Source: Dehalococcoidia bacterium (GTDB lineage Bacteria > Chloroflexota > Dehalococcoidia > GIF9 > AB-539-J10). From it: a stretch of DNA of 64,000 nucleotides. The stretch covers positions 41,722 to 105,721 of the forward strand of contig JBKHJG010000003.1 of NCBI GenBank assembly GCA_046538235.1. Reading direction: 5' to 3'. A program made the translations under genes and the position numbers. Below, piece by piece: positions 47,602 through 62,959 of this stretch (its first letter is position 1; each line of letters starts with the position of its first letter). The notes below the pieces were generated by a model. It saw nothing but the letters and a program-made list of their open reading frames with translations. It was not told the origin of the DNA and did no database searches.

Positions 47602-47604
47602 GGT

Positions 47605-47706
47605 TCACCTCCTTTTTGTTTTGTTTGCGATGCGGTCGCAGATTATGAGGGCGATCAGGACGATCCAGGTGACGCAGATCATCTGGAGGGCTTGGGGGGT
47701 TGGCAT
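47605..47706 (-). CDS. 33-aa single-TM micro-protein (below ORF-track cutoff)
   Basis: MPTPQALQMICVTWIVLIALIICDRIANKTKRR is the C-terminal tail of spurious ORF 47605..48618. A GTG/ATG follows an AAGGAGGTG. Confidence 0.4.
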   Translation of the reverse strand: MPTPQALQMICVTWIVLIALIICDRIANKTKRR

Positions 47707-47711
47707 TTCGG

Positions 47712-47891
47712 TCACGGCTGCACCTCCTTTGCGACGGGCATTTGCGGGGCTATGGTGGTCTCCTGGATGATGCCGGTCCAGCCGCACCATTCGAGGTTGC
47801 AGGCGACGACGGTGGCGCGGTATTCGCTGGGGAAGAGGCCGATGAACACGAACCTCTTCCCCCTGCGCATGATGAGGCAGAACACGGTCAT
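47712..47891 (-). CDS. 59-aa Cys-rich micro-protein (below ORF-track cutoff)
   Basis: Hand translation gives MTVFCLIMRRGKRFVFIGLFPSEYRATVVACNLEWCGWTGIIQETTIAPQMPVAKEVQP, starting after CCAGGAGGTGCAGCC-ATG. The ATGA overlaps the stop of 47888..48244. Confidence 0.4.
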   Translation of the reverse strand: MTVFCLIMRRGKRFVFIGLFPSEYRATVVACNLEWCGWTGIIQETTIAPQMPVAKEVQP

Positions 47892-48244
47892 GGCTGCACC
47901 TCCTGGGCGTGGCGGGCGCGGACCAGGGCATCCATGGCGCGCTGGGCCCTGAAAACCTTGCGCTTGGCTTCTGACGGGTGGTCACCGACCTGGGGGAGGA
48001 AGCATCCCCCGACCTGCCGACAGAGGCTGGGGCAGTGCCCTGCGGCGTGGATCCGCTCACAGATTTCGCCGCGCCGGCGGTCCAGGCGGACACTGAACCG
48101 GCGACGCGCCCTTTCGGCGAGCTGGCGCCTGGACCGCCGCAGACCTGCCTCGCAATGATTGACGCGGCTGCAGATGCGCGGGCACTCAAGAGCGCCGCAG
48201 AGGCCAGGGGCGAGATGTGGGTAATGAAGCAATACCTGGGACAT
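47888..48244 (-). CDS. phage Arg/Cys-rich protein
   Basis: AAGGAGGTG-N5-ATG. 118 aa with 8 Cys. Confidence 0.5.
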   Translation of the reverse strand: MSQVLLHYPHLAPGLCGALECPRICSRVNHCEAGLRRSRRQLAERARRRFSVRLDRRRGEICERIHAAGHCPSLCRQVGGCFLPQVGDHPSEAKRKVFRAQRAMDALVRARHAQEVQP

Positions 48245-49227
48245 GGAGCACCTCCTTGCGCAGGCACGCCGGGGCGGCCGACATGCCTGCTGTTTCTTTC
48301 TCCCAGGTTGCTATACCCGGCCCGAAGGGCGAAAAGCCCGGGAAGAGGGTAAAGCAAGGGCGGAGCCGACAGGCGACGGGAGGGTTGCGCGCATCGAGGG
48401 ACGGCGGTTTCTTGCCCCTCTCTCCTACAAAAAACCGACGGAACTTGAGCCGCAACTCGCGCCGGCCAAGGGATGGGCCCCTGGCCAAGCGACCCGCAGG
48501 GCCGACGAACCCTTGCTCCGTGGGAGATCGACGGCCGAGCGCTCGCGAGCGGTGACGGACCGGCGACAAGCCGGGGACCAGGGCTAAGCAAGCACCGAGA
48601 CGAAGCGAGCGCGGGCATGAAACAATAGGGAAAGCAGCAGGCATAAACAGGGGCTGGCCCGCGAAGCCGCGAGGCCTATCTGCGCCTGCGGCGCTTCGGC
48701 GCAGTCCAGCGTGGCGCCGTCTCCGGCCGGAACGGCCCTGCCGCAGCCGGCCCTTTCGGCGCCGGCAAGGCCCGGAGCGAACCGCCCTGCGCCGAACTCT
48801 GCCTCACCCTTTCGGCGCTGCGGTGAGCGACCTCGCCGACCCGGCTGGCCGGGTCCACGGAGGCTGAAAAGGGGCAAGAGTAGAACGCGGCGAAAGCGGA
48901 CGTCTCCTTGCCCTGGCGCCTTTCGCCGGCGGGCCCTCAAGGCATAGGCCGTGAACCCGGGAACGAGCTATGCCTCCCTTCGCAGCAGGCGGCCTTCTGG
49001 CCTGGTGCGACCGCCGGCGCCCTCCGCAAAGGTGAAGGAGCGGACGCCGCCGCCCACCCTGTGCGCCCCTTTTGAGCTGTAGCGGTACGGGTACCTGTAC
49101 GCGAAGCGAGCACTGGCCGGCGTAACGGATTTTCTTCCTTATTGCTCCCCGACGGCCGGGCGAGCTGAGCTGCGCGTGTGCGGGCGGAGGGGGGTGGTGC
49201 GTGGGGAAAAAAGAGAGGGCCGACGGA

Positions 49228-49521
49228 TCAACCGCTGGCCTCGTTTACGATGCGCACATGGTACAGCCATGAGCGCCGGCCGCGCACAAAGCCCTGCAGC
49301 ACGCGCCACCACTGCTCGGCCGAGCCGAACCCGCTGTACCGCACGAATGGCCGCAGGTCATCGACGGACCGGACCTCGCCGAGCTTGCGCCTGTAGCACC
49401 GACCGACGCCATCGACCCATACGTGAGCACACGACATGTCATAGCCGCGCGCCGTGTAAACCTGGCCGTGCCGCAGCAAGCACTCACGCACGCACCGAAC
49501 CGAAAACTGTATTTTCTTCAT
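49228..49521 (-). CDS. phage small protein
   Basis: AAGGAGGTG-N6-ATG at MKKIQFS, an internal start of the track ORF. 97 aa. Confidence 0.5.
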   Translation of the reverse strand: MKKIQFSVRCVRECLLRHGQVYTARGYDMSCAHVWVDGVGRCYRRKLGEVRSVDDLRPFVRYSGFGSAEQWWRVLQGFVRGRRSWLYHVRIVNEASG

Positions 49522-49711
49522 GACTGCACCTCCTTTTCGCCCCTGGGTAGCAGCCGCCCTTGTTGTCAAGGCGTTTACAGCGCCCTTCGGTCCCTCCGCG
49601 TGCCTTGACAACCTCCTGGCTGCTATAACCCTTAGAAGGAGGTGCAGCATAGAAAATGCTCGGGTGCGTGCGCTTGCGGCGGCACGGCGGTGGGGCGCGG
49701 GTGGGTCCCTC

Positions 49712-49902
49712 CGGGTGGGCACCTGACAGGCCTGAAGCACGCCTGGCTTCTATGGAGCTGGGGTGGTGCGGTGAGGGGTGGGGCGACTGATCCGGGCCAG
49801 GCGATGCCGGGAGGGCCTGTCTTTGGTGCAGGCGGTGAGGGGTTGACGTCGGGTGGGCACCGGAGAAGCGCGAAGCTGGCTTCTCTTTGGTGCAGGTGGT
49901 GG
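49712..49902. repeat. two roughly 130-bp imperfect direct repeat units (GGGTGGGCACC...CTGGCTTCT...CTTTGGTGCAGGYGGTG)
   Basis: GGGTGGGCACC occurs at about 49713 and 49841. CTGGCTTCT occurs at about 49743 and 49876. CTTTGGTGCAGG(C/T)GGTG occurs at about 49820 and 49885. The region is non-coding. Confidence 0.6.
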
Positions 49903-50400
49903 CCGGCCGCGGCCCGGCGGGCTGACTTCAGCGCCGTTGCGGTGCGACGGGACGGGAAGAACGACGGGCGAACATGCCGGGCGCGATCATGACGGCGGCG
50001 TGGCTGGAAGGCCGACGGGGCGCGGGCCGGCGCGGCGACGCACGGTAGCGGTGACGATGACGATCGGTGACGGTGGCGGTAACGGTAGCGCTGACGGAAC
50101 GAGTGTGGTGGTGGTGTGGTGGTGGTGGTGTGGTACGGAGGCGGTGGCAAGATAACAAACCGACGAGGGCGGGCGCCCCTGCCTCGAGGCGGCGGGCGTG
50201 ACGAGCGGAGCCGTCGGGCCGAACCCAGCGATGAGTAGCGAGCCGGCCGCCGCCGTCGCCCGCCCGAAGCCTGCGGCGGCGTAGCCGACGCCCTGGATGA
50301 CCCGATTGACCCAGGTGACTGCGGGCTGACACGAAGATGACCCTTCGGAAGATGACCGTTGGGAAGAGGTGTGGTGTGGGGGCCCGGGAGACCTTCCCGA

Positions 50401-50709
50401 TTAGGCCGGGTGACTGGGTTGGCTTGGTGAGTGCCCTTGCTGAGTGGGTGTGGTTGGTGTGGTGTGTGGATGGTGCTGGGGAAGGGGTAGCTGAGCGCCG
50501 TGCTTCTTGGCCTCATGGACCATGCGGCGTGTCCAGGGTGATTGCCTTGCGAGGTGTTGTGCTTCGGCGAGGGTGTAGGTGATGGCTTGGCTTGGTGTGT
50601 CGGCCAGGTAGGAGTCGTCGAGGACGAACCAGACCTCGTCGTCGAAGTAGGTGGCTTTGAAGCAGTTAGGGTTTGCGGGCGTTGCGGTGTTCAAGTTGAT
50701 CGAGTTCAT
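50401..50709 (-). CDS. phage hypothetical protein
   Basis: The N-terminal 70 aa are protein-like. The C-terminus runs into low-complexity sequence, so the exact end is doubtful. Confidence 0.35.
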   Translation of the reverse strand: MNSINLNTATPANPNCFKATYFDDEVWFVLDDSYLADTPSQAITYTLAEAQHLARQSPWTRRMVHEAKKHGAQLPLPQHHPHTTPTTPTQQGHSPSQPSHPA

Positions 50710-50911
50710 GGATGAGCGCTTTGAGTTTCGCCGGGATCCTTTTGGTTGGCGCTGCGTAGGTTGATGACTTCTGTTTGAAGTAGCGGCTTTGTGTGACGCT
50801 CTTGGCGATCCGCATCTTTAGGTCGTTGATGCGTGTTTGGATTTGGGGGTTTGTCTGAGCGTTGTGTTTGTTTGACTCCCCCTGTTTGTGTTTGGGTCCT
50901 CTTGTTGTCAA
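50666..50911 (-). CDS. phage basic hypothetical protein
   Basis: 81 aa, Lys/Arg-rich. Confidence 0.35.
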   Translation of the reverse strand: MTTRGPKHKQGESNKHNAQTNPQIQTRINDLKMRIAKSVTQSRYFKQKSSTYAAPTKRIPAKLKALIHELDQLEHRNARKP

Positions 50912-51164
50912 GGCGGTTGTATTCTCCAGGGGGGTGTCAGAGTTCGGGCGCGAATTGGAGGCAGTGGAGGCAGATGGTGCCGACGCGGCGCCAGCGGCGG
51001 TTGATGCGGACGTAGCAGGCCTTGACGTCGCCCTTCCGGATCCGGGGGTTGGTCCTGGAACGGGGCGCCCTGGGGCAGAGGTAGTGAGGCTGGAGCTTCA
51101 TAAGTTGAAGGTATACCATAAGGGCGCTGGTTGGCAAACGCCGGCGTTTTTTTCGGAAAACGAG

Positions 51165-53219
51165 TCATCGGGCCCCCAGGGTGAGGGTGTGCTGGTAGCG
51201 TGGCCGGCGCCGGTCCAGGGCGATCCGATCGCCGAGGACGCGAAACTTGCGGGCTGATATGCCGCAGCGAGGGTCCGTGACGTCGATGACGTCGTAGGGT
51301 TCCAGGCCGACGTTGGCAGGGGTGGTGATGGCGGCGGGGGTGGCCTGGAGCTCGGCCAGCCGGAGGATGGCCAGGGCCCTCTCCTCCAGGCGGGCGATGA
51401 CGTCCAGGTTGGGGTCGTAGGCCTGCTCGAGGATATCGATGCCGTCGTGCAGTAGATCCCAGTCGAACTCGTCGTGGACCAGCCGGTCGGCGGAGGCGTC
51501 CCTGCCCAGGGCCCGGGCGCGGGACAGGGTGACAGCATGGCGGTAGCTGCCCTGGAAGATGCGGTGGGCGTCGGGGCCGTAGCTGTAGGCGGAGGCCTCG
51601 GTGGGGCGGGGGTCCTTGGTCTGCGCCAGGCCTCCGGGCAGAAACATGAGTCGGTCGGGGACCAGGGCCAGGAGGCGCCTGAGGACCGTATCGCCGGCCG
51701 TGCCCGGGGTTATGGTAAAGTCGGGGTAGAAGTTATCGATGGCCGAGGAGCGGGGCTGCGGGGGGTCGGTGGTGAGACGGAGTCCTACCCGCGCCAGGAC
51801 GCGGTACATGATCTGCCAGACGCTGCGGGGGGAGCTGGCGTCCTTATTCCAGCGGAGCTGATGCCTGGGGGTCCAGGACCGGAGCAGGCCCCAGCCGTCG
51901 GTGGCGGTGATGATAAACAGGGACCGCCCGGGGCCGTGGGTGTACTCCCAGGACTCGATCCACAGGGTGGCGAAGTCGAGGGTCTCGTCTCCGGCACTGG
52001 TCCGGTAGCCGAGCTCGAGATCGAGCCGGGCGCGAAAGCGAAGCGAAGCCAGGGCGCCGGCGCCGGGGGTCGAATACTGGCCTTTGGAGTTGTTGAGCTC
52101 CAGGCCGAGGGTGCCCGGGCGGTTTACTGTCAATGAGGTTATATCCGGGCTGAGGTCGATGGCGGCCATGGGCGCCCTGGCGGCCCTCCACACTCCGGAG
52201 GGCATCTCCATCCACCAATAGGCGGACGTGGTTGCGAGCCTGAGGCCGTAGTCGGGGGCGATATCCAGGAGCGGCGCCGGCTCGGTGAAGGTGGTGTCGG
52301 TCCAGTCCGTCCCCGGGACCACGTGGCAGGCCAGGGGACGGGTGTAGGCGGTTGTGCCGGCGAACTTCTCGGTCAGGGTGACGCGAGACGTCTCGTAGGA
52401 CTGGGCGGAGGCCGGCAGGTGCACGTCGGGGTAGTGGAAGGTGAGGTCCTCTCCGTCGGGGGCCATGAGGAAGCTCTCCAGGGCTCCGAAGGACCAGAGG
52501 TCGCTAAACCAGGTGCGGAACAGGTTGTGGTGGTTGTAGGGGCTGGCCGACTGCTTGCCGGCGAACACGATGTTGCAGCGGGGCCCGGAGGAATCGTAGG
52601 TGGCTCCGATGCCGTAGGTGTTGGTGATGACGATGGGCTCGGGAGGCGTGTAGGACTTGACCTTCTGGCTGGTGACCTGGGTGTCGGTATCGAGGCGGAT
52701 GCCGTTGATCTCGTCGGCCTTGAGGGCGAAGCAGATGACCGTGCTGGACGTGCCCCACCAGCAGGCGGCCAGGGAGAGCACGTCGGCATAGTCGACCAGG
52801 AGCTCGTCGTCCCAGTTGCTGCCGTAGTCGTGGGTGTAGATCTTGATGATGGCGTTGGGGTAGGGGATATAGCTGGAGGTGGTGCGGCAGAAGATGTAGA
52901 CCCGGGACCCGGAGGCTGTGATGGCGCAGGGGCCCTCGCACTCGGTGAGGACCAGCTCCCAGGTTGAGTAGTTGGACGTCGGGCCGGGGTTGGTGATCCT
53001 CTGGCGGTAGAGGTTGGTGCCGTCCACGCGGAGCCGCCACATGGCGCCCTGGTCATCGAAGGCGATATCGTGCTGGCCCTGGGCCTCGGTACCGGAGTAA
53101 AGCCTCTCCCAGGACAGCCTCTTGACGCCCTGGTACAGGTCCGAGACGGTGGCCTTGACGCAGGGCAGCCGGTGCGGGCTTTTCTGGGCTGCCTCGAGGG
53201 TGGGGGTGAGCGTTTTCAT
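51165..53219 (-). CDS. large virion-associated protein (candidate tail/host-recognition or other structural protein)
   Basis: 684 aa. It is the last large gene of the morphogenesis operon. No Walker motifs. Beta-rich. Confidence 0.5.
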   Translation of the reverse strand: MKTLTPTLEAAQKSPHRLPCVKATVSDLYQGVKRLSWERLYSGTEAQGQHDIAFDDQGAMWRLRVDGTNLYRQRITNPGPTSNYSTWELVLTECEGPCAITASGSRVYIFCRTTSSYIPYPNAIIKIYTHDYGSNWDDELLVDYADVLSLAACWWGTSSTVICFALKADEINGIRLDTDTQVTSQKVKSYTPPEPIVITNTYGIGATYDSSGPRCNIVFAGKQSASPYNHHNLFRTWFSDLWSFGALESFLMAPDGEDLTFHYPDVHLPASAQSYETSRVTLTEKFAGTTAYTRPLACHVVPGTDWTDTTFTEPAPLLDIAPDYGLRLATTSAYWWMEMPSGVWRAARAPMAAIDLSPDITSLTVNRPGTLGLELNNSKGQYSTPGAGALASLRFRARLDLELGYRTSAGDETLDFATLWIESWEYTHGPGRSLFIITATDGWGLLRSWTPRHQLRWNKDASSPRSVWQIMYRVLARVGLRLTTDPPQPRSSAIDNFYPDFTITPGTAGDTVLRRLLALVPDRLMFLPGGLAQTKDPRPTEASAYSYGPDAHRIFQGSYRHAVTLSRARALGRDASADRLVHDEFDWDLLHDGIDILEQAYDPNLDVIARLEERALAILRLAELQATPAAITTPANVGLEPYDVIDVTDPRCGISARKFRVLGDRIALDRRRPRYQHTLTLGAR

Positions 53220-53253
53220 GCGTTAATAACGTTAATAACTCCCTTTTCCGCTC

Positions 53254-53508
53254 TTACCTTAGGAAGGAGATGATAGCGGCGGCGATGGTGATCCAGGCCA
53301 GGGCTCCCAGGGCGCGGCCGGCCATGTAGTAGTGGTGCTCGGAGACGATCTCCCTCTTGAGCTCGCAGAGGATCTCCTTGTGGCGCGGGGGCCAGGGGCA
53401 GAGGACCTCACAGAGTCCCTGGACCAGGGCATGCCACTCCTCGTGCCTGTCCAGGAAGTGACGGGGCTCGATGCCTCTGAGAAATCCCCTGGGCTGTTGG
53501 TAGCTCAT
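53254..53508 (-). CDS. phage small protein with C-terminal hydrophobic helix
   Basis: 84 aa ending in WITIAAAIISFLR. Confidence 0.45.
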   Translation of the reverse strand: MSYQQPRGFLRGIEPRHFLDRHEEWHALVQGLCEVLCPWPPRHKEILCELKREIVSEHHYYMAGRALGALAWITIAAAIISFLR

Positions 53509-53511
53509 TTC

Positions 53512-53700
53512 CTATTCCGTGGGCTCCCCCGGCAGGATGGGGAGCGGGCGGTCGTAGCCGAGGTCGCGGAGGGCCTGCAGGTGTACCAGGGCTTCGATGG
53601 CCAGCTTGACGGCTTCTCTCCTGTCGTCGGGGTCATACTGCGGTCCTCCGCATAGCAGGTCTGTGAGGATTTCGATTGCTTTATCTAGTCTCATATTCAC
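53512..53700 (-). CDS. phage small protein
   Basis: 62 aa. It overlaps the upstream gene. Confidence 0.4.
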   Translation of the reverse strand: MNMRLDKAIEILTDLLCGGPQYDPDDRREAVKLAIEALVHLQALRDLGYDRPLPILPGEPTE

Positions 53701-54565
53701 CTTCCTTGCCTCCCTTCGGCATCTCCTGCCTCAAATGGTGTAGCGGGAATCCAGTAGCATCGCAATAGAACGGATAATAGCCAGCGATGTCTGGACTTTC
53801 CCCGAGATTATCCTTCAGGAACACCGGGACGCTCGCCTGGTCCGCGGCCTCGACGATCTCGGTGATCCACTCGACCTTCGGCGTGGTGGCCTTCCGTACT
53901 GGGGTCTGCTGGCCTATGATGATCCAGTCCACGGGTCTATCTGAGATCGAATACTCGATTGCCCGGAAGACCTCACCATCCCAATCCAGAAGAGGCTCTA
54001 CCGATATGAACTTCACCTTTGCATCGACCTCATGCAGCCAGTTATGTGCGTCGATGAAATGCAGCGTATCAGTCGCCGTCACCCCGACCCAGCAGTTCTC
54101 AGGAAAGCTCCACGTGATAAGGTTCTGCGGCTGCTTCGTCAAGAGATAGAAGCGGTCCATCGGATCACTCGTGATATAGTCAAAAATCTCCTGCTGCCAC
54201 TCTTCGGGCACCCAATCACCAAAGAGCTCACCCATGTCGCAAACAAAAATCCCCTTTGGCTTTCTACCGCTCAGACTGTCCCACCAAGCACCAGAAGGCT
54301 TGATATCCTCCAACCTCTCTTCCCAGAACCGAGGATAGAAGGGGTCAGTAACGGCTGCGTTCCAGACATCACTACTCGGAGCGAGGACGCCGCCCAATGT
54401 GTACCTCGTCCTCAGCCGTCCATGCGCCAGCCTATGAGCATAGCACGGGAAGCCCCCACCTTTACAAAGGCCGTTGACATGGTTCAGGCAGCCGGTGATA
54501 GGATTCCAAGTGTAGCCCTGGCTGCCATCAGGGTTCTTTACCCACTCGATTAATGTTTTGTTCAC
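53681..54565 (-). CDS. phage Gp37/Gp68-family protein (DUF5131)
   Basis: IEWVKNPDGSQGYTWNPITGCLNHVNGLCKGGGFPCYAHRLA matches the Gp37/Gp68 N-terminal Cys cluster. Confidence 0.65.
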   Translation of the reverse strand: MNKTLIEWVKNPDGSQGYTWNPITGCLNHVNGLCKGGGFPCYAHRLAHGRLRTRYTLGGVLAPSSDVWNAAVTDPFYPRFWEERLEDIKPSGAWWDSLSGRKPKGIFVCDMGELFGDWVPEEWQQEIFDYITSDPMDRFYLLTKQPQNLITWSFPENCWVGVTATDTLHFIDAHNWLHEVDAKVKFISVEPLLDWDGEVFRAIEYSISDRPVDWIIIGQQTPVRKATTPKVEWITEIVEAADQASVPVFLKDNLGESPDIAGYYPFYCDATGFPLHHLRQEMPKGGKEGEYETR

Positions 54566-54753
54566 TTCTCCTGCTCGGTCTCGCCTGGGAGTGGATCTGA
54601 GGTAGTAAGGGGATAGGGCAAAGTTCGGTCAGCATTGACTCGCTTCAGCGCCTCAATGCCCAGCAACATCGCCTTAGCGTATTTGTGGTAAAACCCTTGT
54701 GCAACTATTGCCTGGTGTAGTTTTAACTCCTTAATGGCTTCTTCTAGTGTCAT
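54562..54753 (-). CDS. phage small protein
   Basis: An internal ATG (MTLEEAIKELK) follows GGAAGGAGAA. The ATGA overlaps the stop of the upstream gene. Confidence 0.45.
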   Translation of the reverse strand: MTLEEAIKELKLHQAIVAQGFYHKYAKAMLLGIEALKRVNADRTLPYPLTTSDPLPGETEQEK

Positions 54754-55007
54754 TGCTGTTTGTTCTCCTTCCTGTGCATGTATGTACGCTCGCCGAAGTA
54801 CCACAATATACAGGGGATGGCCAGGCTGATGAACCAGGGCGGGGGCTCGATCTCCGCCAGGACGGCGCCGGCGATGGTGCCGGCGAATATGACGGTGACG
54901 ATGGGCCGGGTGGCTGCCCTGGCCGTCTCGGCGACTGCGTTTTGCCGCGCCAGAGGGCACTGAGAGGCCGAGGGCGGCCCCTGTTTTGCCTGGGCCGTGT
55001 CTTTCAT
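54750..55007 (-). CDS. phage small membrane protein (2 TM; holin-like topology)
   Basis: 85 aa with two hydrophobic helices. ATGA coupling occurs at both ends. Confidence 0.45.
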   Translation of the reverse strand: MKDTAQAKQGPPSASQCPLARQNAVAETARAATRPIVTVIFAGTIAGAVLAEIEPPPWFISLAIPCILWYFGERTYMHRKENKQQ

Positions 55008-55321
55008 GCCAGGTCCTTGAGGGTTTCCGGGACCTCCCTGTCGGCCTTGCGGTAGTGGTTGGCCAGGTGCCTGGCGGCTCGGGCCTTCTGCTCGCTGGGG
55101 GCCTCCACCTGCTGCCCGCGGTGTCCGCCCGGGCTGAGGGCGGCGACTGCTGCCGGCATGCGGTCCCAGTCCACGGTGGCCTCGATATCGAGGCGGCCTC
55201 TGAGGGCCCGCCAGATTGACCTGGTGTGATGGGGGAGCTTCCAGGTGTCGGGATCCCGGGCGTCTCCCACTATGGCGAAGGCCTGCCGGGGTAGCCCTTC
55301 CTTGCTTAGCTGCTCGCTCAT
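55004..55321 (-). CDS. phage protein, paralog A of tandem pair
   Basis: It shares HHTR...IDWEAMPAA.AAL...EQ...AARHLA.HY..A.R.VP.TL with 55329..55541. Confidence 0.5.
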   Translation of the reverse strand: MSEQLSKEGLPRQAFAIVGDARDPDTWKLPHHTRSIWRALRGRLDIEATVDWDRMPAAVAALSPGGHRGQQVEAPSEQKARAARHLANHYRKADREVPETLKDLA

Positions 55322-55328
55322 TTGGGTC

Positions 55329-55541
55329 CTATGTCATGGCGGCCAGGGTGGCCGGGATCGGCCTGCCGGCGTTGTGGTAGTGCCGGGCCAGGTGCCGGGC
55401 TACCGCCAGGCGCTGCTCGGGACTGGCCGGTACGGGCGGCCGGGTGTAGGACCCGCGCAGAGCTGCGATGGCGGAGGGCATGGCCTCCCAGTCGATGGCC
55501 CCTTTCCTGGTGTGGTGCGGATAGTTCCTTAGCTCGCTCAT
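55329..55541 (-). CDS. phage protein, paralog B of tandem pair
   Basis: See 55004..55321. Confidence 0.5.
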   Translation of the reverse strand: MSELRNYPHHTRKGAIDWEAMPSAIAALRGSYTRPPVPASPEQRLAVARHLARHYHNAGRPIPATLAAMT

Positions 55542-55551
55542 TTTATGCTCC

Positions 55552-55761
55552 TTAAGGCGTGAATACTGCTATGATGACGGCATCCCTGGGGTTATGGCGT
55601 GGCAGGGCGAGGATGACGTGGCGGCCGGCGACCATCTCACCGGCCGCGATGTTCCTGGCCACGGGCACGGCGTCGAAGTAGGTGCTGGTGGACGACACGA
55701 GCTGGACCTCCGCGGTATGGGTCCCGCTGTCGAAGCCCTTGAGTATGCCCACTTCCAGCAT
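55552..55761 (-). CDS. phage small structural protein (head-tail adaptor region)
   Basis: 69 aa. Placed by position between the capsid gene and downstream genes. Confidence 0.4.
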   Translation of the reverse strand: MLEVGILKGFDSGTHTAEVQLVSSTSTYFDAVPVARNIAAGEMVAGRHVILALPRHNPRDAVIIAVFTP

Positions 55762-55765
55762 TTGA

Positions 55766-56359
55766 CTACTCCTCTACGTACAGGTCGCGGGTGCGGACGC
55801 GGCTGGACCAGGCGATGCGCTTGAGCTCGGCCTTGTACTGCTGGAGGCGCTCCTTGCCCCAGTCGCGGTAGTTGATGGTGGCCCTGTCGCCGGACATGGT
55901 GGCACGGTCCACGGTATAGGCGGAGATGGACATGGCCAGGTAGCCGGTGGTGCCCAGGATAATGATCTCCGCGTGCTCCTCGGGGATGGTAGTGCTGGTG
56001 GTGGTAACCTCATGGCGCTTGGTCCAGCGGACGCGGGCGTCGCTAACTCCATCTCCCTCGGAGGTCATGGTGAGGTGGCCGGCCCAGTAGTTGAAGCGCT
56101 GGTAGTAGGGCGGCGACTGGTCCACGGGGTACTCGACGGAGAGGACCTTAATGAGGGCGGTGAGGCTGGAGATGTCGATCTCGCGGCTGGAGGCGGTGGT
56201 GGCGACGTCGTCCTGCTGCTCGATGGGCGCGCGGAGGGAATACTCGTCGACGACGCGCAGAAGCATATTCTCGATGTCGTTGTCGGACCACAGCTGCTGC
56301 GCCGGGTCGGTGTCCATGAGATCTTCCCGGACCCTTTCTCTGAGCTCGTTGAGGTTCAT
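55766..56359 (-). CDS. putative head-tail connector / head completion protein
   Basis: 197 aa immediately downstream of the major capsid gene. Identified by gene order only. Confidence 0.4.
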   Translation of the reverse strand: MNLNELRERVREDLMDTDPAQQLWSDNDIENMLLRVVDEYSLRAPIEQQDDVATTASSREIDISSLTALIKVLSVEYPVDQSPPYYQRFNYWAGHLTMTSEGDGVSDARVRWTKRHEVTTTSTTIPEEHAEIIILGTTGYLAMSISAYTVDRATMSGDRATINYRDWGKERLQQYKAELKRIAWSSRVRTRDLYVEE

Positions 56360-56493
56360 GCTTTAGCTCTCCTTTCTGTCGACCTTGTCCGAGGGGGAAT
56401 GGGGGAGGGTGGGTCGATGGCACCCTCCCCCTGCGACAAAGGAGGTGCGGAAAGGACCCGCCAGGGGGCGGTCAGGTCCCTGGCAGGCCGGCA

Positions 56494-57435
56494 TTAGTCG
56501 GTCACTCCTATGAGGGCTGCCCTGGCCACGACATTGAAGTCCACCAGGGAGCAGTACCACTTGAGGCGGTGCCTGGTGGCGTCCTTGGTCTCCAGGGTGC
56601 CCACGCGCTCGATCTGTATGCCCTGGTTGGTGGCCCCGCAGACGGCGCCCTCGCCGAAGCGGAGGGCATAGATGGTGCTGCAGGTCCCGCCGGTGACGGC
56701 CGTCTCGTAGCCGGACGTGAGGACGTGGGTGTCGAGGATCCAGTCGTTGATGGCAACGGGGATGCCGTTCCACAGCTGGATGAAGTTGCCCCACTGGTCA
56801 CGGTCCGTCTCGATGGCGAAGCCGGCCGCCCGGGCCAGCTCGTTCATCTTGCGGCGGCTGCGCCGGCTCATCATGAGGATATCGGGCTTGCCGCCCTTGA
56901 CGGCGTCTATGAGGTGGTCCACCTTGGAGAAGGTGAGGGTCCCGCCGGTGCCGCCCATGGTGACCACCTGGTCGCTGGGCCCGCCGGTCGCTATGAGCTT
57001 GACCAGGCCGTCGAAGGCGTTGGCGTCGACGGTCTGGCCGGTGAGGTATGTGGCGGTGGTACCGTAGACCAGGGTTCTCTCGAACTCGTGCCTGAGGGAC
57101 TTGGCGGCCAGCTCGAGGACTGCAGCCTCGATATCCTGGATGTTAGACCGGGTCTGCCTTATGAAGTTATCCAGGTCGGCGTCGCGGCCGAGGATGGAGA
57201 GGGTGGCGGTGAGCGGGTCGAACTCGGGAGCGGTGGGCTGGTCCCAGGTGCCCAGGGGCGGGAACCACTTGGCGGCGGCCAGGGCCTTCTCCCTGTTGTA
57301 GGTGAGGCCGTTGCCCTCGATCTCGATGAAGGGCGTGACCTGGAGTATGGGGCTCTCCTTGAGGATGGTCTCGATGACGCCTCTCAAGAGGACGTCGTTG
57401 GTGAGCTTTGCTGATTCGGCTAGTGTTAAAGCCAT
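56494..57435 (-). CDS. putative major capsid protein
   Basis: 313 aa. The N-terminus (MALTLAESAKLTNDVLLRGVIE) is typical of phage major capsid proteins. It directly follows the scaffold gene, with the ATG overlapping the scaffold stop. Confidence 0.6.
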   Translation of the reverse strand: MALTLAESAKLTNDVLLRGVIETILKESPILQVTPFIEIEGNGLTYNREKALAAAKWFPPLGTWDQPTAPEFDPLTATLSILGRDADLDNFIRQTRSNIQDIEAAVLELAAKSLRHEFERTLVYGTTATYLTGQTVDANAFDGLVKLIATGGPSDQVVTMGGTGGTLTFSKVDHLIDAVKGGKPDILMMSRRSRRKMNELARAAGFAIETDRDQWGNFIQLWNGIPVAINDWILDTHVLTSGYETAVTGGTCSTIYALRFGEGAVCGATNQGIQIERVGTLETKDATRHRLKWYCSLVDFNVVARAALIGVTD

Positions 57436-57980
57436 TAGCTAGTTCCTCCTTGCGATTGTGATAGGCCCAGCTTGATCTTCTCCGCGGGGGAGAGGCTCTC
57501 CAGGTCGATGGCCCTGGTGGGGGCTCCGGCCGGCACGCGGGTGTTCCTGGCCTCGTTCTCCAGGCTGGCCTTGACCGCCTGGGCGATGGCCTGGGCCTTC
57601 TCCACCGAGGCGTCTATGTCCTCGATGGTGCTGCCGGCGATGGTCTCCGGGGGCAGAGACGGGTTGGCCGCCTTGACGGCCTCCAGGTATTTCTGGACGG
57701 CGGCGCCGTGGGCCTCCTGGAGGGTGGTCCGCTCGGCCTGGGCGGCTTCGCTGAGCTGCCTGGCTTCGCTGAGTTCGGTCTGGAGGAGGGCGATATGCTC
57801 GTCCTTCTCGGTGAGGGCGGCCAGGGCCTCAGCGGCTGCGGTCCTCTCCTCCTCCAGCTGGGCCCTGATGGACTCCAGGTCCTCTTCCGTGGATACGCCG
57901 TCGGTCTCTGCGGGTGCGCCCGGGTTCTCCTGGGGTTCCTGATCTTGCTGTTCGTTGTCTTGTTCCTGTTCTTCGGGCAT
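57435..57980 (-). CDS. putative scaffolding protein
   Basis: 181 aa, acidic, with a predicted coiled coil (IRAQLEEERTAAAEALAAL...). It lies between the portal and capsid genes. Confidence 0.55.
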   Translation of the reverse strand: MPEEQEQDNEQQDQEPQENPGAPAETDGVSTEEDLESIRAQLEEERTAAAEALAALTEKDEHIALLQTELSEARQLSEAAQAERTTLQEAHGAAVQKYLEAVKAANPSLPPETIAGSTIEDIDASVEKAQAIAQAVKASLENEARNTRVPAGAPTRAIDLESLSPAEKIKLGLSQSQGGTS

Positions 57981-57998
57981 GTTTCCTCCTGTGAGTTG

Positions 57999-59375
57999 CT
58001 ATTCGGGCACTTCCATCTCCGGGGCCGTCGCTCTCTCTCTCGCTCCGCCTCGGGTGGAGCGTGCCTGGAACTCCTGGTTCATTTCCAGGATCCTTTTCCT
58101 CTCCTGCAGCCAGCGGTCGAACTCCTCGTCGGGGTCCTGGATGTTCATCTGGTCCATGGCGGTCCTGCGGCTGTGTACTCCCGCCTGGACCAGGAGCTGC
58201 TCGGTCTGGGCCTGCCGGTCGGTGTCCTGCGGCAGTATGGGGCCCCAGACCATTCGGTGGTTGACGTCGTGAAAGTCGTGCTTCATGTAGATCTCGGCCA
58301 GTGTGATGATCATGGCGTTGCGCCGGTAGTAGACGTTGGTGCGGACCAGGCGCTTGCGGATGACCTTCTGAATGAGGGACCCGAGCTCGATCCTGAGGGC
58401 GGCTCCGGAGAGCTCCCGCTCCACGCCGCCCCAGGCTGCCCGGGGCGTCTCCGAGACGTCGTGCATGGTGCGGTAGACGTGGTCGATGTAGTCGATGTGC
58501 AGCCTCACTCCTCCACCCTGGAGTAGATCGAGCAGGTAGGCCTTGGCGTCCTCGGGTATGGTCCACAGGGCGCCGGGCTGGACCTTGATGTCCTCGGCCT
58601 CTGAGACGTTCTCCAGGACGGCGATGGGGTTGCCGGAGAGCTCCAGGATCCGGGATAGCTGGGAGAAGGCGCGGTTCAGCTCCCTCTGGGGCTGCATGAT
58701 GACGGGGATGTCGGACACCCCCCAGAAGTGCTTGGGATCGCGGACGTTGGGGAAGATGATAAAGGGGATAAAGCCGTAGGGGTTTGGCCTGGACTCTATG
58801 AGGGCGTTCTCGATATAGAGCGAGAACTCGTCGGCGGTCCACAGCTCGGTGACCGTGGCCGTCTTGCGGCCCGGGTCGCGGCCGTAAAGGACCGTAACCT
58901 CGTCCTGGTCCAGGGTGTACCGTGAGGCCACGCGCCAGACGCGGGACAGGTCGTCTCCGATCCACCAGGCGAAGATCCCGGAGACATCGGGGGCGGTGAC
59001 CCTGATGCGCTTCTGGTCGGCATCCCAGGTGACCTTGTAGCAGCCGTCGCCCAGGACGGCGGTGTCGACCTCGGTCTCGTAATCGAGCTGGTCCAGGTTG
59101 TTGTCGTGGCGGACCTGGTTGATCAGCTCCTCGGCCCGGCGGGCCCGGGCCAGGGCGTCCTCTCCCTGGGCGGCGGGGAAGCAGGTAAAGCTGGCGCCGT
59201 GCATGAGAAAGCTGGTGACCTTGTCGACCACGGCCTTGGCATAGTTAAAGACCAGCTGGCGGTGTCGGGTTCGCGTCTCCCAGTGCTGGCCCTGGTAGAA
59301 ATTGAGGTTCTGGAGGTATCTGGCCCGCCGGTCCGTGTCGATGCGATTGAGGTGGGCTGGGTTGAAGTCATTCAT
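57999..59375 (-). CDS. putative portal protein
   Basis: 458 aa. The N-terminus carries ...YLQNLNFYQGQHW. It directly follows the large terminase gene, overlapping it by 8 nt. Confidence 0.6.
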   Translation of the reverse strand: MNDFNPAHLNRIDTDRRARYLQNLNFYQGQHWETRTRHRQLVFNYAKAVVDKVTSFLMHGASFTCFPAAQGEDALARARRAEELINQVRHDNNLDQLDYETEVDTAVLGDGCYKVTWDADQKRIRVTAPDVSGIFAWWIGDDLSRVWRVASRYTLDQDEVTVLYGRDPGRKTATVTELWTADEFSLYIENALIESRPNPYGFIPFIIFPNVRDPKHFWGVSDIPVIMQPQRELNRAFSQLSRILELSGNPIAVLENVSEAEDIKVQPGALWTIPEDAKAYLLDLLQGGGVRLHIDYIDHVYRTMHDVSETPRAAWGGVERELSGAALRIELGSLIQKVIRKRLVRTNVYYRRNAMIITLAEIYMKHDFHDVNHRMVWGPILPQDTDRQAQTEQLLVQAGVHSRRTAMDQMNIQDPDEEFDRWLQERKRILEMNQEFQARSTRGGARERATAPEMEVPE

Positions 59376-60744
59376 CTCTGAGTCCTCCTTTGGCTGCCCT
59401 GGGGCGGAAGTCCCTGGCGGCCTCGGCTGTGAGTGCCAGGCTGACCAGGAAGTCGTCGTGTCCCTCCTGGGGATCGACGTAGAAGTTCATGGTCTGGTTG
59501 GGGCGGTACTGGGACCTGGCCCTTTCCAGCTGGAGCGTGAGCTCCTGGTACTCGGGGGACCCGTCCTTCTTATAGATACGCAGCCGGCCGCTGTTGACCA
59601 GTGATAGCAGCTCAAAGCCCATGTCGGACTTGCTCCTCTGGGTAAAGGTGAACGGGACGATGCGGCTGCCGAGGTGGCTCCTGAGGAAGCTGGCGACGGG
59701 CTGCCCGATGCCTGTGCTGTCGACCAGGACCTTGTGACAGCCCCAGGCCTGGAGGATGCCCACCATCTGGCCGTAGAGCTGGCTGTGCGGTGTTCCGGTC
59801 CAGTGGTAGTGCTCCACGACCTTGACGGCCGGCTCGGTGAGGGGTGCCTGGGACCTCTGGGTGGTGTCGACTTCGGCTATAGTGATGACTGTGGAGTCCA
59901 GTTTTGAGCGAGCTGAGGCGAGGGCCTGTTCCTTGGTCTCCTCGCGCTCGCCGGCGAGGTCGATGCCTGCAACGTAGGTCTTGCCGGGCTCGGGATCCTT
60001 ACGGCGGGGGTATGTGCCGGCAAGGGACACGATCTGCTGCCTGGTGAGGAAGCCGCCGCCGCCGCGGAGTGGAAGAAGCAGGTACTGTGTGCGGAATAGC
60101 GGGTGGTCCTCGCCCAGGCGGTCGCGCTCGGCCTCTACGTAGCGGCCGTATTCGGGGTTGTGCCTGGCGACGTCCTGCCAGTCATAGCGGAAGTGGCGCT
60201 TGATGCCGTCCCTCCGCTCCAGCTCGAGGTTGGTCTGCTTGACCTCTTCCAGCAGGGTGGTGTCATCCCAGGTGGTTCCGTAGTGCACGGTGGTGACGTT
60301 GGTAGAGGACCCCATGGGTCGGAACTCCTTGCTGTACTTCTCCTTGCTCACGTCCTGGGACTCGTCGATCTCCAGGAGAATGTCGGCTGTGTGGCCGACT
60401 ACAGAGGCATGCTCGTCGGCGGAGAGGAATACGGCCCTGGCCGCTCCCAGGGTGAGTATGTACCCCATCTCGAGGCGGTAGGTGCCGTCGAAGCCGAACT
60501 CTTCCAGGCGGTCCTTGAGGCGGGCGATGGAGACGATGGTCTGGGGCTTGAAGGTGGGGGAGCACTTGACCAGGCTGCCGCCTTGGGCCATGTAGAGGGT
60601 GAGGAGGAGCACTTCCAGGTGTGCTGACAGCTCGTTCTTGCCGCCCTGGCGGGCGATCTCGACGGAGAGGGTGAGGCCTTGGCCGTCCCGGATGCTGTCC
60701 AGGACGGCCCGGGCTACCTCCTGCTGGTAGGGCCTGAGTTTCAT
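59368..60744 (-). CDS. terminase large subunit
   Basis: MKLRPYQQEVARAVL...VEIARQGGKNELSAHL is a Walker A-like RQxGK. 458 aa. Confidence 0.7.
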   Translation of the reverse strand: MKLRPYQQEVARAVLDSIRDGQGLTLSVEIARQGGKNELSAHLEVLLLTLYMAQGGSLVKCSPTFKPQTIVSIARLKDRLEEFGFDGTYRLEMGYILTLGAARAVFLSADEHASVVGHTADILLEIDESQDVSKEKYSKEFRPMGSSTNVTTVHYGTTWDDTTLLEEVKQTNLELERRDGIKRHFRYDWQDVARHNPEYGRYVEAERDRLGEDHPLFRTQYLLLPLRGGGGFLTRQQIVSLAGTYPRRKDPEPGKTYVAGIDLAGEREETKEQALASARSKLDSTVITIAEVDTTQRSQAPLTEPAVKVVEHYHWTGTPHSQLYGQMVGILQAWGCHKVLVDSTGIGQPVASFLRSHLGSRIVPFTFTQRSKSDMGFELLSLVNSGRLRIYKKDGSPEYQELTLQLERARSQYRPNQTMNFYVDPQEGHDDFLVSLALTAEAARDFRPRAAKGGLRDE

Positions 60745-61094
60745 CTTGATAGCTTTGCGCCGACGGCTATGCCGACGCCGAGGGGCGCGGCCACGTCGGT
60801 GAGGACCTTCTGGATGGCCTCCTTGAGGGTCTTTTTCTCCTGTCTGCTGATCTGGTAGCGGGTCCTTACCAGGCGGGCTATGACGTTGGCCGCCTGGAGG
60901 TGTAGGTCGATGCGGTCCGGTGAGTTCTCTATGAGCTGACGGAGCTTCCAGCGGAGGATGGCGATCTCGTCGTCGATGCCCTCGAGGTCCATGAGCTGCT
61001 GAACCTCGAGTTGCTCGGCCTCTGTGAGGGCCCGGGAGTAAAAGCCGTGCTTACGGGCGTTCTGGTTTCCGGCGGGTGGTCCTTTTCTTGCCAT
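60741..61094 (-). CDS. putative terminase small subunit
   Basis: Internal ATG start at MARKGPPAGNQNARKHGFYS, with the GNQNA.KHG motif. 117 aa. Confidence 0.5.
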   Translation of the reverse strand: MARKGPPAGNQNARKHGFYSRALTEAEQLEVQQLMDLEGIDDEIAILRWKLRQLIENSPDRIDLHLQAANVIARLVRTRYQISRQEKKTLKEAIQKVLTDVAAPLGVGIAVGAKLSR

Positions 61095-61212
61095 TGATGC
61101 GGTCCTTCTGCGCGGCCTTGGCCTTGAGCATGCCGTACACGAGGACGTGGGCGGCCAGGTCATAGCGCTGTGCTTTGAGTGCGAGCGGGAGAACCTTAGC
61201 TTTAGCTTTCAT
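61051..61212 (-). CDS. phage small basic protein
   Basis: Internal start at MKAKAKV, preceded by GGAGG. 53 aa. Confidence 0.4.
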   Translation of the reverse strand: MKAKAKVLPLALKAQRYDLAAHVLVYGMLKAKAAQKDRINGKKRTTRRKPERP

Positions 61213-61399
61213 GGTGTCGGCCTCCTGTGCGTGTTTGGGTAAGGTCCCGGGCGAACTTCTCGGTGACTGCGCGGGCGATCCAGGTCCCGATATCGAGGCC
61301 GGCAATGGCGGCTGCGGATTTGGCCATGCGGCGGGCCTGGGGCGGGAAGTTACGGATGTGGTAGCCCTTGTCCTTTGTGTTAGCGGTCTTGGTGTTCAT
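61202..61399 (-). CDS. phage small protein (possible DNA-binding)
   Basis: 65 aa, basic N-terminus (...MAKSAAAIAGLDIGTWIARAVTEKF). Confidence 0.4.
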   Translation of the reverse strand: MNTKTANTKDKGYHIRNFPPQARRMAKSAAAIAGLDIGTWIARAVTEKFARDLTQTRTGGRHHES

Positions 61400-61790
61400 G
61401 TTCCCTCCCGGCTAGTATTGCGGCGGTGTTGGCGGCGGCGATGGCCGCGTAGGACGTCTTGGCGTCGGGGGTGATCTGGTAGCGGGTGTTGCGGCTGTCG
61501 CCCAGCCTGGTGATGGTCACGGACGCAAAGTTGGTGTCGTGCGGTCGCGGTACTGTCCTGAGGTCGGTCATGACTTGGTCTCCGAATTCCCAGGCCGCCG
61601 GCTGGTTGTCAATGAGGAGGCGGGCCTGGTAACGCCATCGTGTGGGGAGGCCTGCGAGGCAGTGGGGGCATCCCTGGCCGAGGCAGAGCTCGCTCCTCTG
61701 CCCGGTCCAGTGTTTGGGGACGCTCTTGATGGATGCGAAGTCGATGCTGGCATGGACGCTCTCTCCCTCTTTGATCCTGAGCCACTGCAT
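61380..61790 (-). CDS. phage hypothetical protein with CxxC motif
   Basis: Internal ATG at MQWLRIKEGE. CLGQGCPHC. Confidence 0.45.
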   Translation of the reverse strand: MQWLRIKEGESVHASIDFASIKSVPKHWTGQRSELCLGQGCPHCLAGLPTRWRYQARLLIDNQPAAWEFGDQVMTDLRTVPRPHDTNFASVTITRLGDSRNTRYQITPDAKTSYAAIAAANTAAILAGREHEHQDR

Positions 61791-62956
61791 TGCCTCTCCT
61801 CCTGTCGGCCGTATTCGGGCGGGGGCGGGGGGAAGGCACACTCACTGCTGTGCACTCTAACCTTCGATGTCTCCCCCGGCGTTCCCCCATGTCGTTCATT
61901 GCTTAAGCTTAAGCTTAAGCGCTTAGACTTACACTTCTTACTATCAGGTATTGAGCTTACGCTTCCGCTTTCGTCAAGCAGGGCGATCGCAGACTGAAGG
62001 TGCGAGGGTAGCAGGTCCAGGTAGACGGCGGTGGTGGATATGTCGGCGTGGCCGAGAAGGGCCTGGACTGCGGTGATGGGGGCTCCCTGCTCGAGAAGGC
62101 GGGTGGCGAACTGGTGGCGGAGGCTGTGCGGTGTGAGGTCGGTGATGCCGGCGGCCACGGCGTATTGCTTGACTATGGTATAGAGGCGCTTCCGCTGGAA
62201 AGGAAAGAGGCTGTCGGTGGGCTTGATGCGGTTGGACGCGATGTGCTCGGCCAGGGGTTGCCGGAGGACCTGGCTGAGGGGGATGGCGCGGTCCTTGCCT
62301 CCCTTGCCCCTGCGGACCAGGATGAAGTCGGGCGTGATGTCGCAGGGGCGGAGGTTAAGCAGCTCGGATGCGCGCAGGCCGGTGAAGGCCAGCATAAGGA
62401 GTATGAGCCTGTCCCGCGCCTTGTTCCTGGACCAGCTGTCGGTGCGGGCGTCGATGGCCTGGAGCATTGACTCGAGGTCCTGTCGGGAGTGGTACTGGGG
62501 GAGCTGACGGGGCCTCTTGAACTTGAGCTTGAAGGGTATGCCCTGGTACTCAAGGAAGGGTTTGATGGCGTGGTAGTATAGCTGTATGCTGCGGGGGCTG
62601 TAGGCGTGGGTCCTGAGGTCGGCGAGGAAGGCCCGGGCAGCCTGGGGCGAGATGGGCCGGCGGTCCAGCCAGGTGGCGAAGGTGGTGAGGCACTGCCTGT
62701 ATTTGGCGATGGTGGTGGGTGATAGGTCCGGGTTAAGTTCGACCTCGCTGAGGTAATCGTGTAGCAGGGCGACGCTGTAGCCTGGCGGCTCTGCTGGCAC
62801 CGGTAGTACCCCCCAACCCGTCCCGTGATCGCTAGTCAGATGGGAGCTGCTAGTGGGGTGTGTATGGTAGCGGTTGGGGTTGGGTGGTGTCAAGGGGTGG
62901 GCCCGGGGCCGGCCTGAGGTGAGGGGACACATAACTCGGCTTACAGGTTTACTCAC
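61568..62956 (-). CDS. tyrosine recombinase / phage integrase (XerC/D-like)
   Basis: Catalytic-domain motifs: RDRLILLMLAFTGLRASELLNLR (Arg box I), HSLRHQFATRLL (His-x-x-Arg box II) and LLGHADISTTAVYLDL (catalytic Tyr). The GTG at 62956 lies inside attR, so the true start is probably downstream. The C-terminal roughly 130 aa of the ORF is low-complexity read-through, probably not part of the protein. Confidence 0.8.
   Translation of the reverse strand: MSKPVSRVMCPLTSGRPRAHPLTPPNPNRYHTHPTSSSHLTSDHGTGWGVLPVPAEPPGYSVALLHDYLSEVELNPDLSPTTIAKYRQCLTTFATWLDRRPISPQAARAFLADLRTHAYSPRSIQLYYHAIKPFLEYQGIPFKLKFKRPRQLPQYHSRQDLESMLQAIDARTDSWSRNKARDRLILLMLAFTGLRASELLNLRPCDITPDFILVRRGKGGKDRAIPLSQVLRQPLAEHIASNRIKPTDSLFPFQRKRLYTIVKQYAVAAGITDLTPHSLRHQFATRLLEQGAPITAVQALLGHADISTTAVYLDLLPSHLQSAIALLDESGSVSSIPDSKKCKSKRLSLSLSNERHGGTPGETSKVRVHSSECAFPPPPPEYGRQEERQCSGSGSKRERASMPASTSHPSRASPNTGPGRGASSASARDAPTASQASPHDGVTRPASSLTTSRRPGNSETKS
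61901..61920. repeat. perfect 20-nt palindrome GCTTAAGCTTAAGCTTAAGC
   Basis: Self-complementary (AAGCTT)x3 core, immediately after the conserved integrase catalytic-Tyr region. Confidence 0.8.
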
Positions 62957-62959
62957 CCG
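62933..62959 (+). repeat. attR-like 27-nt direct repeat (displaced copy of rnpB 3' end)
   Basis: aactcggctta(c)aggtttactcacccg lies immediately upstream of the integrase gene. Confidence 0.7.

Follow-up and report, generated by a model that had tools for sequence, protein, structure and literature searches.

A candidate minimal podovirus-like temperate phage of Dehalococcoidia and its possibly domesticated chromosomal relatives

Phage-inducible chromosomal islands (PICIs) of the capsid-forming kind, e.g. EcCIEDL933, are small integrated elements of Proteobacteria or Firmicutes that encode an integrase, TerS, TerL, a portal, a capsid and adaptor-type proteins, and no tail tube, tape measure or sheath. 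The phi29-like and P68-like phages have genomes of 16-20 kb and tails of few portal-attached proteins; they are virulent, use a protein-primed polymerase, have neither an integrase nor TerS, and their tail knob has a hub-like fold. Here, we describe an integrated element of 18.2 kb in a Dehalococcoidia bacterium (assembly GCA_046538235.1, contig JBKHJG010000003.1, positions 41,722-105,721). This whole stretch of 64,000 nucleotides (nt) is called the window, and all coordinates are window positions. Our preferred interpretation, which we rate somewhat above an even chance, is that the element represents a complete podovirus-like temperate phage of minimal size, with a protein of 684 amino acids (aa) as its main or only tail component. 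An earlier reading, made from the letters of the same stretch (the sequence-only reading), had offered two models, i.e. a capsid-forming PICI that borrows its tails from a helper phage and a very small podovirus-like temperate phage with the 684-aa protein as its tail. The tail-type features of this protein and the compact, recurring relatives of the element favour the second model.

The element (44773..62959) is flanked by direct repeats of 36 nt, which are 89% identical and have a spacing of 18151 nt (Table 1). The gene for RNase P RNA, rnpB, ends in the left copy, and the integration target is this gene rather than a tRNA gene; rnpB stays complete because the element brings a near-identical 3' end. 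A similar attachment (att) core was found beside the integrase gene of a relative (L118). The GC content of the element is 0.63-0.68, compared with 0.55-0.60 for the flanks. The genes of the element are all read from the minus strand; a promoter-like site (62893-62864, minus strand) precedes the integrase gene, and a strong terminator-like hairpin closes the array.

The operon of the sequence-only reading was confirmed on the minus strand at the positions given there (TerS, TerL, portal, scaffold, major capsid protein, small proteins, Gp37/Gp68 and the 684-aa protein). The proposed size of 18 kb with an integrase and packaging and capsid genes of its own was borne out by the 18.2 kb between the repeats and by the PF00589 match of the integrase. 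Likewise, Pfam, PHROGs and NCBIfam gave no match to a tape measure, tube, sheath, endolysin, polymerase, primase or helicase for any open reading frame (ORF) of the element, as that reading had stated.

Table 1 Features of the element and of its integration site, ordered by window position
Feature	Position	Strand	Basis
rnpB (RNase P RNA gene), integration target	44399..44808	+	Rfam RF00010, 290 bits, full model 1-367
attL core, left repeat copy (rnpB 3' end)	44773..44808	.	direct-repeat search, sequences read
Intrinsic-terminator-like hairpin closing the minus-strand array	45246..45273	-	12-bp stem, 10 G-C pairs, T7 tail, directly after last ORF
Far-end conserved genes: p219, p141, five small ORFs	45281..47353	-	
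p141, zinc ribbon	46294..46719	-	conserved in relatives
p219	46694..47353	-	phrog_10477 'exonuclease' 3.3e-16
Variable region	47605..50400	-	tblastn from relatives, GC by codon position
Conserved small ORF	47712..47891	-	tblastn from relatives
Conserved small ORF, Cys-rich	47888..48244	-	tblastn from relatives
Likely gene	49228..49521	-	in the variable region
p102	50401..50709	-	tblastn from relatives, 57-67%
Cys-rich ORF, ~75 aa	50937..51164	-	tblastn from relatives, 52-73%
684-aa tail-like protein	51165..53219	-	N-terminal six-bladed sialidase-like propeller; C-terminal domain weakly like phage tail/baseplate-hub
p84, small protein, C-terminal membrane anchor	53254..53508	-	hydrophobic segment at residues 67-83, conserved in homologues
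Cargo block: DUF5131 gene and two flanking small ORFs	53512..54749	-	no homologue in related loci
DUF5131 (Gp37/Gp68)	53681..54565	-	PF07505 2e-29; TIGR04471 2e-21, below curated cut-off
p85, small membrane protein	54750..55007	-	hydrophobic segment at residues 35-51, conserved in L001 and L002 homologues
p105, small protein, paralogue of p70	55004..55321	-	alignment A4
p70, small protein, paralogue of p105	55329..55541	-	alignment A4
p69, small neck protein candidate	55552..55761	-	43-75% identity in relatives
p197, head-to-tail adaptor candidate	55766..56359	-	position; mostly 49-61% identity across relatives
Major capsid protein, HK97 fold family	56494..57435	-	phrog_212 6.2e-54, SU10_MCP 2e-6
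Scaffold-like ORF, acidic, helical, between portal and capsid	57435..57980	-	position and composition
Portal, SPP1-type	57999..59375	-	SPP1_portal 6.7e-20, phrog_64 4.6e-34
TerL	59368..60744	-	Terminase_6C 1.6e-4, phrog_5909 2e-7
TerS, likely start 61094	60741..61163	-	phrog_1889 3.2e-9
orf65, small conserved ORF	61202..61399	-	53-65% identity in relatives, always between integrase and TerS
orf153, conserved, no family match	61380..61841	-	51-66% identity in relatives; overlaps 3' end of integrase ORF
Tyrosine integrase, maximal ORF, true start probably internal	61568..62956	-	PF00589 1.9e-33, phrog_1 4e-45
attR core, right repeat copy, adjoins integrase	62924..62959	.	direct-repeat search, sequences read

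The hallmarks of the Caudoviricetes, i.e. an HK97-fold capsid, a portal and a terminase, are all present in the element, and its structural ORFs are all intact. TerL has 3544 homologues, and the best 120 of these are 73-83% identical, which points to purifying selection; a protein of a Dehalococcoidia metagenome-assembled genome (MAG) at NCBI is 100% identical. The TerS proteins of relatives are 54-74% identical and have lengths of 114-141 aa, and the integrases are 42-55% identical. The acidic ORF between the portal and capsid genes, which is 37-64% identical in relatives and has no family match, is presumably the scaffold gene. The capsid protein is 35-37% identical to the capsids of cultured long-tailed (sipho-type) phages with genomes of 42-59 kb.

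The 684-aa gene is the largest of the structural genes and in every case the last of them. Full-length homologues of its product, with identities of 53-59%, number more than 440; all of them are from metagenomes or Dehalococcoidia MAGs, and almost none has a Pfam domain. Weak Pfam matches among the homologues were to BNR (20 of 26) and to Phage-tail_3 (3 of 26). A first AlphaFold model, built with 26 close homologues, was unusable, with a predicted local distance difference test score (pLDDT) of 43.7. The second model was built with 106 sequences, including a second subfamily at ~27% identity, and reached a pLDDT of 73.7. Its propeller is closest to sialidases. Foldseek matches of ~190-235 columns were obtained with a chain from the baseplate of the Photorhabdus virulence cassette (PVC) and with viral proteins that bear the names 'Tail protein' and 'Type VI secretion system component'. 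The Foldseek output does not give query ranges, and we infer that these matches belong to the C-terminal half of the modelled protein. Of the fold searches proposed in the sequence-only reading, the structure model of the 684-aa protein yielded tail-like matches, and the profiles of the 684-aa protein, p197 and p219 yielded nothing meaningful against the PDB.

In the podophages T7 and SU10, the nozzle protein has a propeller core and docks on the adaptor (PMC9509320). In many relatives of the element, the 684-aa gene is directly preceded by the gene for a 128-aa homologue of the fibre I protein of Ralstonia podophage GP4. This homologue matches the Pfam family 'Podophage GP4 fiber I protein gp80' (PF23140, 8e-53) and a virion chain in the PDB (8jou, 2.6e-12). 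The term 'head-only' in the sequence-only reading is therefore not upheld, given the tail-type features of the 684-aa protein and the podophage fibre homologue beside it in relatives. The capsid protein and, faintly, the adaptor candidate match families of SU10 (a Kuravirus), and these matches, the fibre homologue and the analogy to the propeller-containing nozzle support a link to podophages. Unlike the element, SU10 and GP4 encode separate nozzle, needle and several fibre proteins, and the 684-aa protein has no sequence similarity to the proteins of these phages. The genomes of SU10 and GP4 are several times larger than the element.

Some homologues of the 684-aa protein have N-terminal extensions and reach up to 1067 aa (L071 8709-11912, L141 16479-19682; P0019, P0084, P0115). 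One of these carries DUF4082, the sole Pfam outcome from the longer variants. Their occurrence suggests that the extensions are exchangeable receptor-binding modules.

The small genes upstream of the 684-aa gene would provide the neck and possibly a release function. By its position, p197 is the candidate for the head-to-tail adaptor. Its homologue in L002 has a faint precomputed match to SU10_adaptor; the p197 profile gave an insignificant match to PDB entry 7wmp ('Adaptor protein gp12', E 0.79) and, like that of p105, nothing meaningful among the PDB sequences. No family match was found for p69. The paralogues p70 and p105 share an invariant P-H-H motif (mean column identity of 78% in alignment A4) and have a weak match to phrog_19463, a family of unknown function. 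The two small membrane proteins p85 (41-62% identical in relatives) and p84 (38-62%) are the only lysis-type candidates of the element and are possibly holin-like; p85 in particular is a holin-like candidate. With regard to the tail tube, tape measure and lysis homologues that, by its own terms, would refute the sequence-only reading, no curated family was matched at threshold in the element, and the tail-like 684-aa protein and the small membrane proteins are candidates.

The gene set of the element recurs widely. TerL homologues, mostly with identities of 74-83%, were found in 45 IMG/VR contigs, more than 40 of which share the gene order. Where the sequence suffices, this order is integrase, small ORFs, TerS, TerL, portal, scaffold, capsid, p197, small proteins, 684-aa homologue, small ORFs, p219 and p141. 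Both TerL and the 684-aa homologue are present in 23 contigs, with no extra tail genes in between, and none of the 45 contigs contains a tail tube or tape measure. In a permuted contig of 17,171 bp (L115), the first position falls at residue 136 of the 684-aa homologue and the last one near residue 116; similarly, the permuted L111, from a contig of 18,518 bp, starts and ends inside the 684-aa gene. Neither L115 nor L111 has an exact terminal overlap, and circularity is therefore deduced solely from the gene order and the junctions. A further relative (L141) is integrated in a host contig of 107 kb, and in two contigs from other samples (L142 and L143), which are 99.8-100% identical to L141, the two ends that carry p141 and the integrase gene are joined; together, the three imply a size of ~18.4 kb. 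Taken together, the permuted contigs and L141-L143 indicate that a unit of 17-19 kb is complete and mobile. The integration module with its att sites and the integrated and joined states of this relative fit excision, for which the contigs speak in the case of the relative rather than the window's own copy.

If the element is a phage of this kind, the circle formed by excision would be replicated by host enzymes, with p219 and p141 as candidate initiators, and the DNA would be packaged into a small head. The adaptor candidate of 197 aa would form the neck together with small conserved proteins. The 684-aa protein, as an oligomer, would dock on this neck as a stubby tail, so that its hub-like half closes the channel and its propeller binds or cuts a glycan of the cell surface. 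Release would be served by the membrane proteins p85 and p84, and a cell-wall hydrolase would not be needed if the host has no peptidoglycan. Cultured Dehalococcoides lack peptidoglycan.

Several points weigh against the phage interpretation. The element is known from its sequence alone. No replication initiator, repressor or lysis enzyme was recognised with Pfam, PHROGs or NCBIfam. With tblastn, the 684-aa protein had no match in 50,697 deposited phage genomes, and its profile matched neither the PDB sequences nor lambda J. The Foldseek matches behind the hub-like reading of the C-terminal half are modest, and this half includes a segment with a pLDDT <50 (residues 557-605). The GP4 fibre homologue is absent from the window's copy. 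This copy may also have decayed, in view of ~1.7 kb without coding signal (48250-49130 and 49550-50400, GC 0.66-0.68), in which neither coding periodicity nor a homologue in relatives was detected. Lastly, we know of no solved precedent for a single-protein tail on an HK97-type head.

A second group of relatives is chromosomal and lacks the integrase and the terminase. The 684-aa homologue of 23 species-level genomes of Dehalococcoidia is encoded in a structural cluster that comprises an HTH gene, the genes for the portal, scaffold, capsid, p197, p69, p105, p85 and p84, in some cases one for the fibre homologue, and the 684-aa gene itself. Eight loci extend 3.5-4 kb upstream of the portal gene, and in these no gene for TerS, TerL or an integrase was found nearby. 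In about 20 species, the cluster occupies the same chromosomal site (loci L001, L002, L005, L009, L010, L012-L015, L020, L021 and L023). It is preceded by a conserved gene for a protein of >1000 aa and followed by a series of host genes (a 184-aa gene, Lactamase_B, a 224-aa gene, Peptidase_A24, DUF72, UvrC and XerC), mostly with identities of 73-94%. Pairwise ratios of nonsynonymous to synonymous divergence (dN/dS) were 0.11-0.31 for the cluster genes and a similar 0.10-0.27 for the flanking genes, and by this measure purifying selection acts on the genes of the cluster. At synonymous sites, the cluster is somewhat more diverged than its flanks, so that occasional replacement of the cluster by recombination is conceivable. 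In two genomes, the 684-aa gene is fragmented (L023 10001-12010, L021 10001-12158), and L023 has broken portal and capsid genes as well; decay of these copies or errors of assembly would account for such cases.

A scan of metagenomes with TerL gave 80 loci. For 62 of them enough downstream sequence was available; the portal gene adjoins TerL in 23 and does not in 39. At least 35 of the 80 loci carry an orphan TerS-TerL pair that has the gene for a PHO4 phosphate transporter on one side and a CetZ/tubulin-like gene, followed by TIG-domain genes, on the other. The same context was present in an MAG at NCBI and in a Logan assembly; the loci with the orphan pair at this fixed host site are L139, L140, L171, L176 and L194-L226. 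On two contigs (Ga0315549_1000046 and Ga0315543_1000201), the structural cluster and the orphan pair are 17-35 kb apart, a distance that would exceed the content of one small head.

Additional variants were observed. A mobile element beside the gene for ribosomal protein S9 (L138 6309-18000) encodes an integrase, HTH_17, a 561-aa AAA_25 protein, TerS, TerL, a homologue of the cluster HTH protein, p219 and p141, and has no capsid genes. Capsid-less elements of this type, with a replication ATPase, may exploit resident capsid genes. In the assembly GCA_049671165.1, TerS-TerL is directly followed by an HNH-like gene and a p102 homologue, and the block from the portal to the 684-aa gene is missing (L136); another contig of this assembly (L018) carries the chromosomal 684-aa gene. 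In L144 and L145, the array from terminase to capsid lies beside host genes, with no integrase gene immediately upstream of TerS.

The fixed sites, the loss of the integrase, the split between packaging and structural genes, and purifying selection form a pattern like that of gene transfer agents, and we therefore consider that a clade of Dehalococcoidia may have domesticated a mini-phage into a split system of this type, with the window's element as a still-autonomous viral relative. We put this forward tentatively, at somewhat below an even chance, because the two loci were seen together on only two contigs and because the packaging of host DNA is only proposed. As with RcGTA, the chromosomal relatives are phage-derived, lack integrase and replication genes, reside at fixed sites, are divided between two loci and are under purifying selection. 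The tail of RcGTA is long and has a tube and a tape measure, whereas the relatives, which are known from their genes, have no such module. If the structural cluster and the terminase pair are kept by selection in spite of this, the gene set is probably enough for a working particle.

The persistence of the cluster also bears on the origin of the tail in the window's element. One rival explanation is a capsid-forming satellite that builds its own heads and borrows tails from a helper phage, with the 684-aa protein as an accessory host-range or glycan-degrading factor. The element is small, has an integrase at one end, its own genes for TerS, TerL, the portal and the capsid and an adaptor-like gene, has no tube, tape measure or sheath, and in outline resembles the capsid-forming PICIs as defined in PMC10085698; moreover, capsid-less relatives such as L138 (integrase, AAA_25 protein, TerS and TerL) show that parasitic lifestyles exist in the family. 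However, several core modules of PICIs were not found in the ORFs of the element. Instead of a primase-replicase and an AlpA/MerR/Stl-type regulator module by the integrase, the space between the integrase and TerS contains only small ORFs with no assignment, and instead of an HNH nuclease and a prohead serine protease/head-decoration module, the element has the scaffold-like ORF. Tail and holin genes, which are absent from PICIs, are not represented by any curated family at threshold, but there are candidates for such components, i.e. the 684-aa protein with its tail-like folds and the weak Phage-tail_3 match, and the small membrane proteins p85 and p84 in the operon, in addition to the virion fibre homologue in relatives. 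The search for a helper phage that the sequence-only reading had proposed was unproductive: among the larger ORFs that were sampled in the rest of the window, none matched a prophage or phage family (they belong to host enzyme and surface families, e.g. Dxs, MutS and AroA), and no tail module is carried by, or neighbours, any of about 230 related loci. No helper is known for the element, which is located in Chloroflexota, in contrast to the PICIs. Finally, about 20 species have retained the same structural set, without integrase or terminase and without a helper-type context, at one fixed position of the chromosome, which makes a dependence on helper tails unlikely. For these reasons the PICI model is disfavoured, and we consider a satellite unlikely.

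We assign an equally low probability to the alternative that the window's element itself produces non-infectious or transfer-agent-like particles, which move host or element DNA, or that it is en route to domestication. Its integrase-less relatives at fixed sites, their purifying selection and the separate terminase locus would fit such a role, as would the ~1.7 kb without coding signal and the foreign cargo gene in the structural operon of the window's copy. The particles of gene transfer agents take up random host DNA and do not hold the agent's complete gene set. Such agents have no integrase or att sites and are inherited vertically at a fixed locus, which applies to the chromosomal relatives. 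In contrast, the window's element retains an integrase, att repeats, TerS and TerL beside the head genes and a distinct GC content, its structural ORFs are all intact, and the near-identical relatives in integrated and ends-joined states fit self-mobilisation.

A decayed remnant of a larger long-tailed prophage, from which the modules for the tail, lysis and replication have disappeared, would agree with the sipho-type phages of 42-59 kb as nearest cultured capsid relatives and with the lack of family matches for tube, tape-measure, lysis and replication genes, but it is very improbable given the same compact gene order in >40 independent contigs, the permuted contigs of 17.2 and 18.5 kb and the third relative of ~18.4 kb, which leave no space for lost modules, the indicated purifying selection on TerL, and the intact att repeats.

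A phage of minimal size therefore remains our preferred interpretation of the element. It shares its genome size and, if our reading is right, a tail of few portal-attached proteins with the phi29-like and P68-like phages; in contrast to these, it has an integrase as well as TerS and TerL, and no match to a polymerase.

Between the integrase and TerS, orf65 has no family match and is a candidate regulator or excisionase. The integrase ORF and orf153 overlap by ~270 nt (61568-61841) in different frames, and both frames are conserved in relatives. In the cargo block, the product of the DUF5131 gene shows similarity, at a level below the curated cut-off, to 'radical SAM mobile pair protein A'; the gene sits inside the structural operon, and the two small ORFs on either side of it look paralogous. 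DUF5131 has no homologue in any related locus, and the GC content falls to 0.58 there; it is therefore regarded as cargo specific to the window's copy.

Downstream of the 684-aa gene, an ORF at 50908..51168 was dropped in favour of the Cys-rich ORF, whose overlapping frame is conserved. The GC-rich stretches without coding signal had no Rfam match even at a permissive threshold, their tandem repeats are trivial, and raw tblastx was too noisy in GC-rich DNA to be of use; decayed genes, an origin or a novel RNA are candidates for their content. The far-end genes are candidates for a role in replication or regulation. Of these, p219 and p141, whose profiles had no match in the PDB, are conserved beside the att-site junction in the permuted relatives and are the candidates for replication.

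Around the integration site, a second promoter-like site (44361-44389) was found at rnpB. A tRNA-Ser gene at 42187..42276 was rejected as attachment site because the repeats lie at rnpB, and the ORF beside it (42538..43959) was rejected as integrase gene, as it encodes a repeat-rich surface-type protein, with a signal-peptide-like start and, by sequence, leucine-rich-type repeats. It is one of several large putative surface proteins in the host flank (42538-43959, 2714-4618, 4677-7256 and 11601-13301, all on the minus strand). The ORF 2714..4618 matches the InlB B-repeat family, and 4677-7256 and 11601-13301 match a beta-helix family. Between the att site and the terminator, there is a small plus-strand ORF with a signal-peptide-like segment (44854-45198), which may not be real.

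A literature search found no paper describing this virus family, although related contigs are already included in IMG/VR as unannotated viral contigs. The recently described IME1 viruses of Dehalococcoides belong to a different lineage, which is capsid-less and unrelated.

If our interpretation is true, the element would be among the smallest temperate tailed viruses, with an adsorption and delivery device that is essentially one protein on an HK97-type head, and it would be informative on the minimum that a tail requires. In addition, it would represent a widespread virus lineage of Dehalococcoidia, a group that is important in sediments and in dechlorination and for which we found few descriptions of viruses. 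The chromosomal relatives would matter more. To our knowledge, no gene transfer agent is known in the phylum Chloroflexota. If the domestication reading is true, the relatives would be a candidate for a new lineage of gene transfer agents, and the route from phage to agent would be testable with the viral relative at hand.

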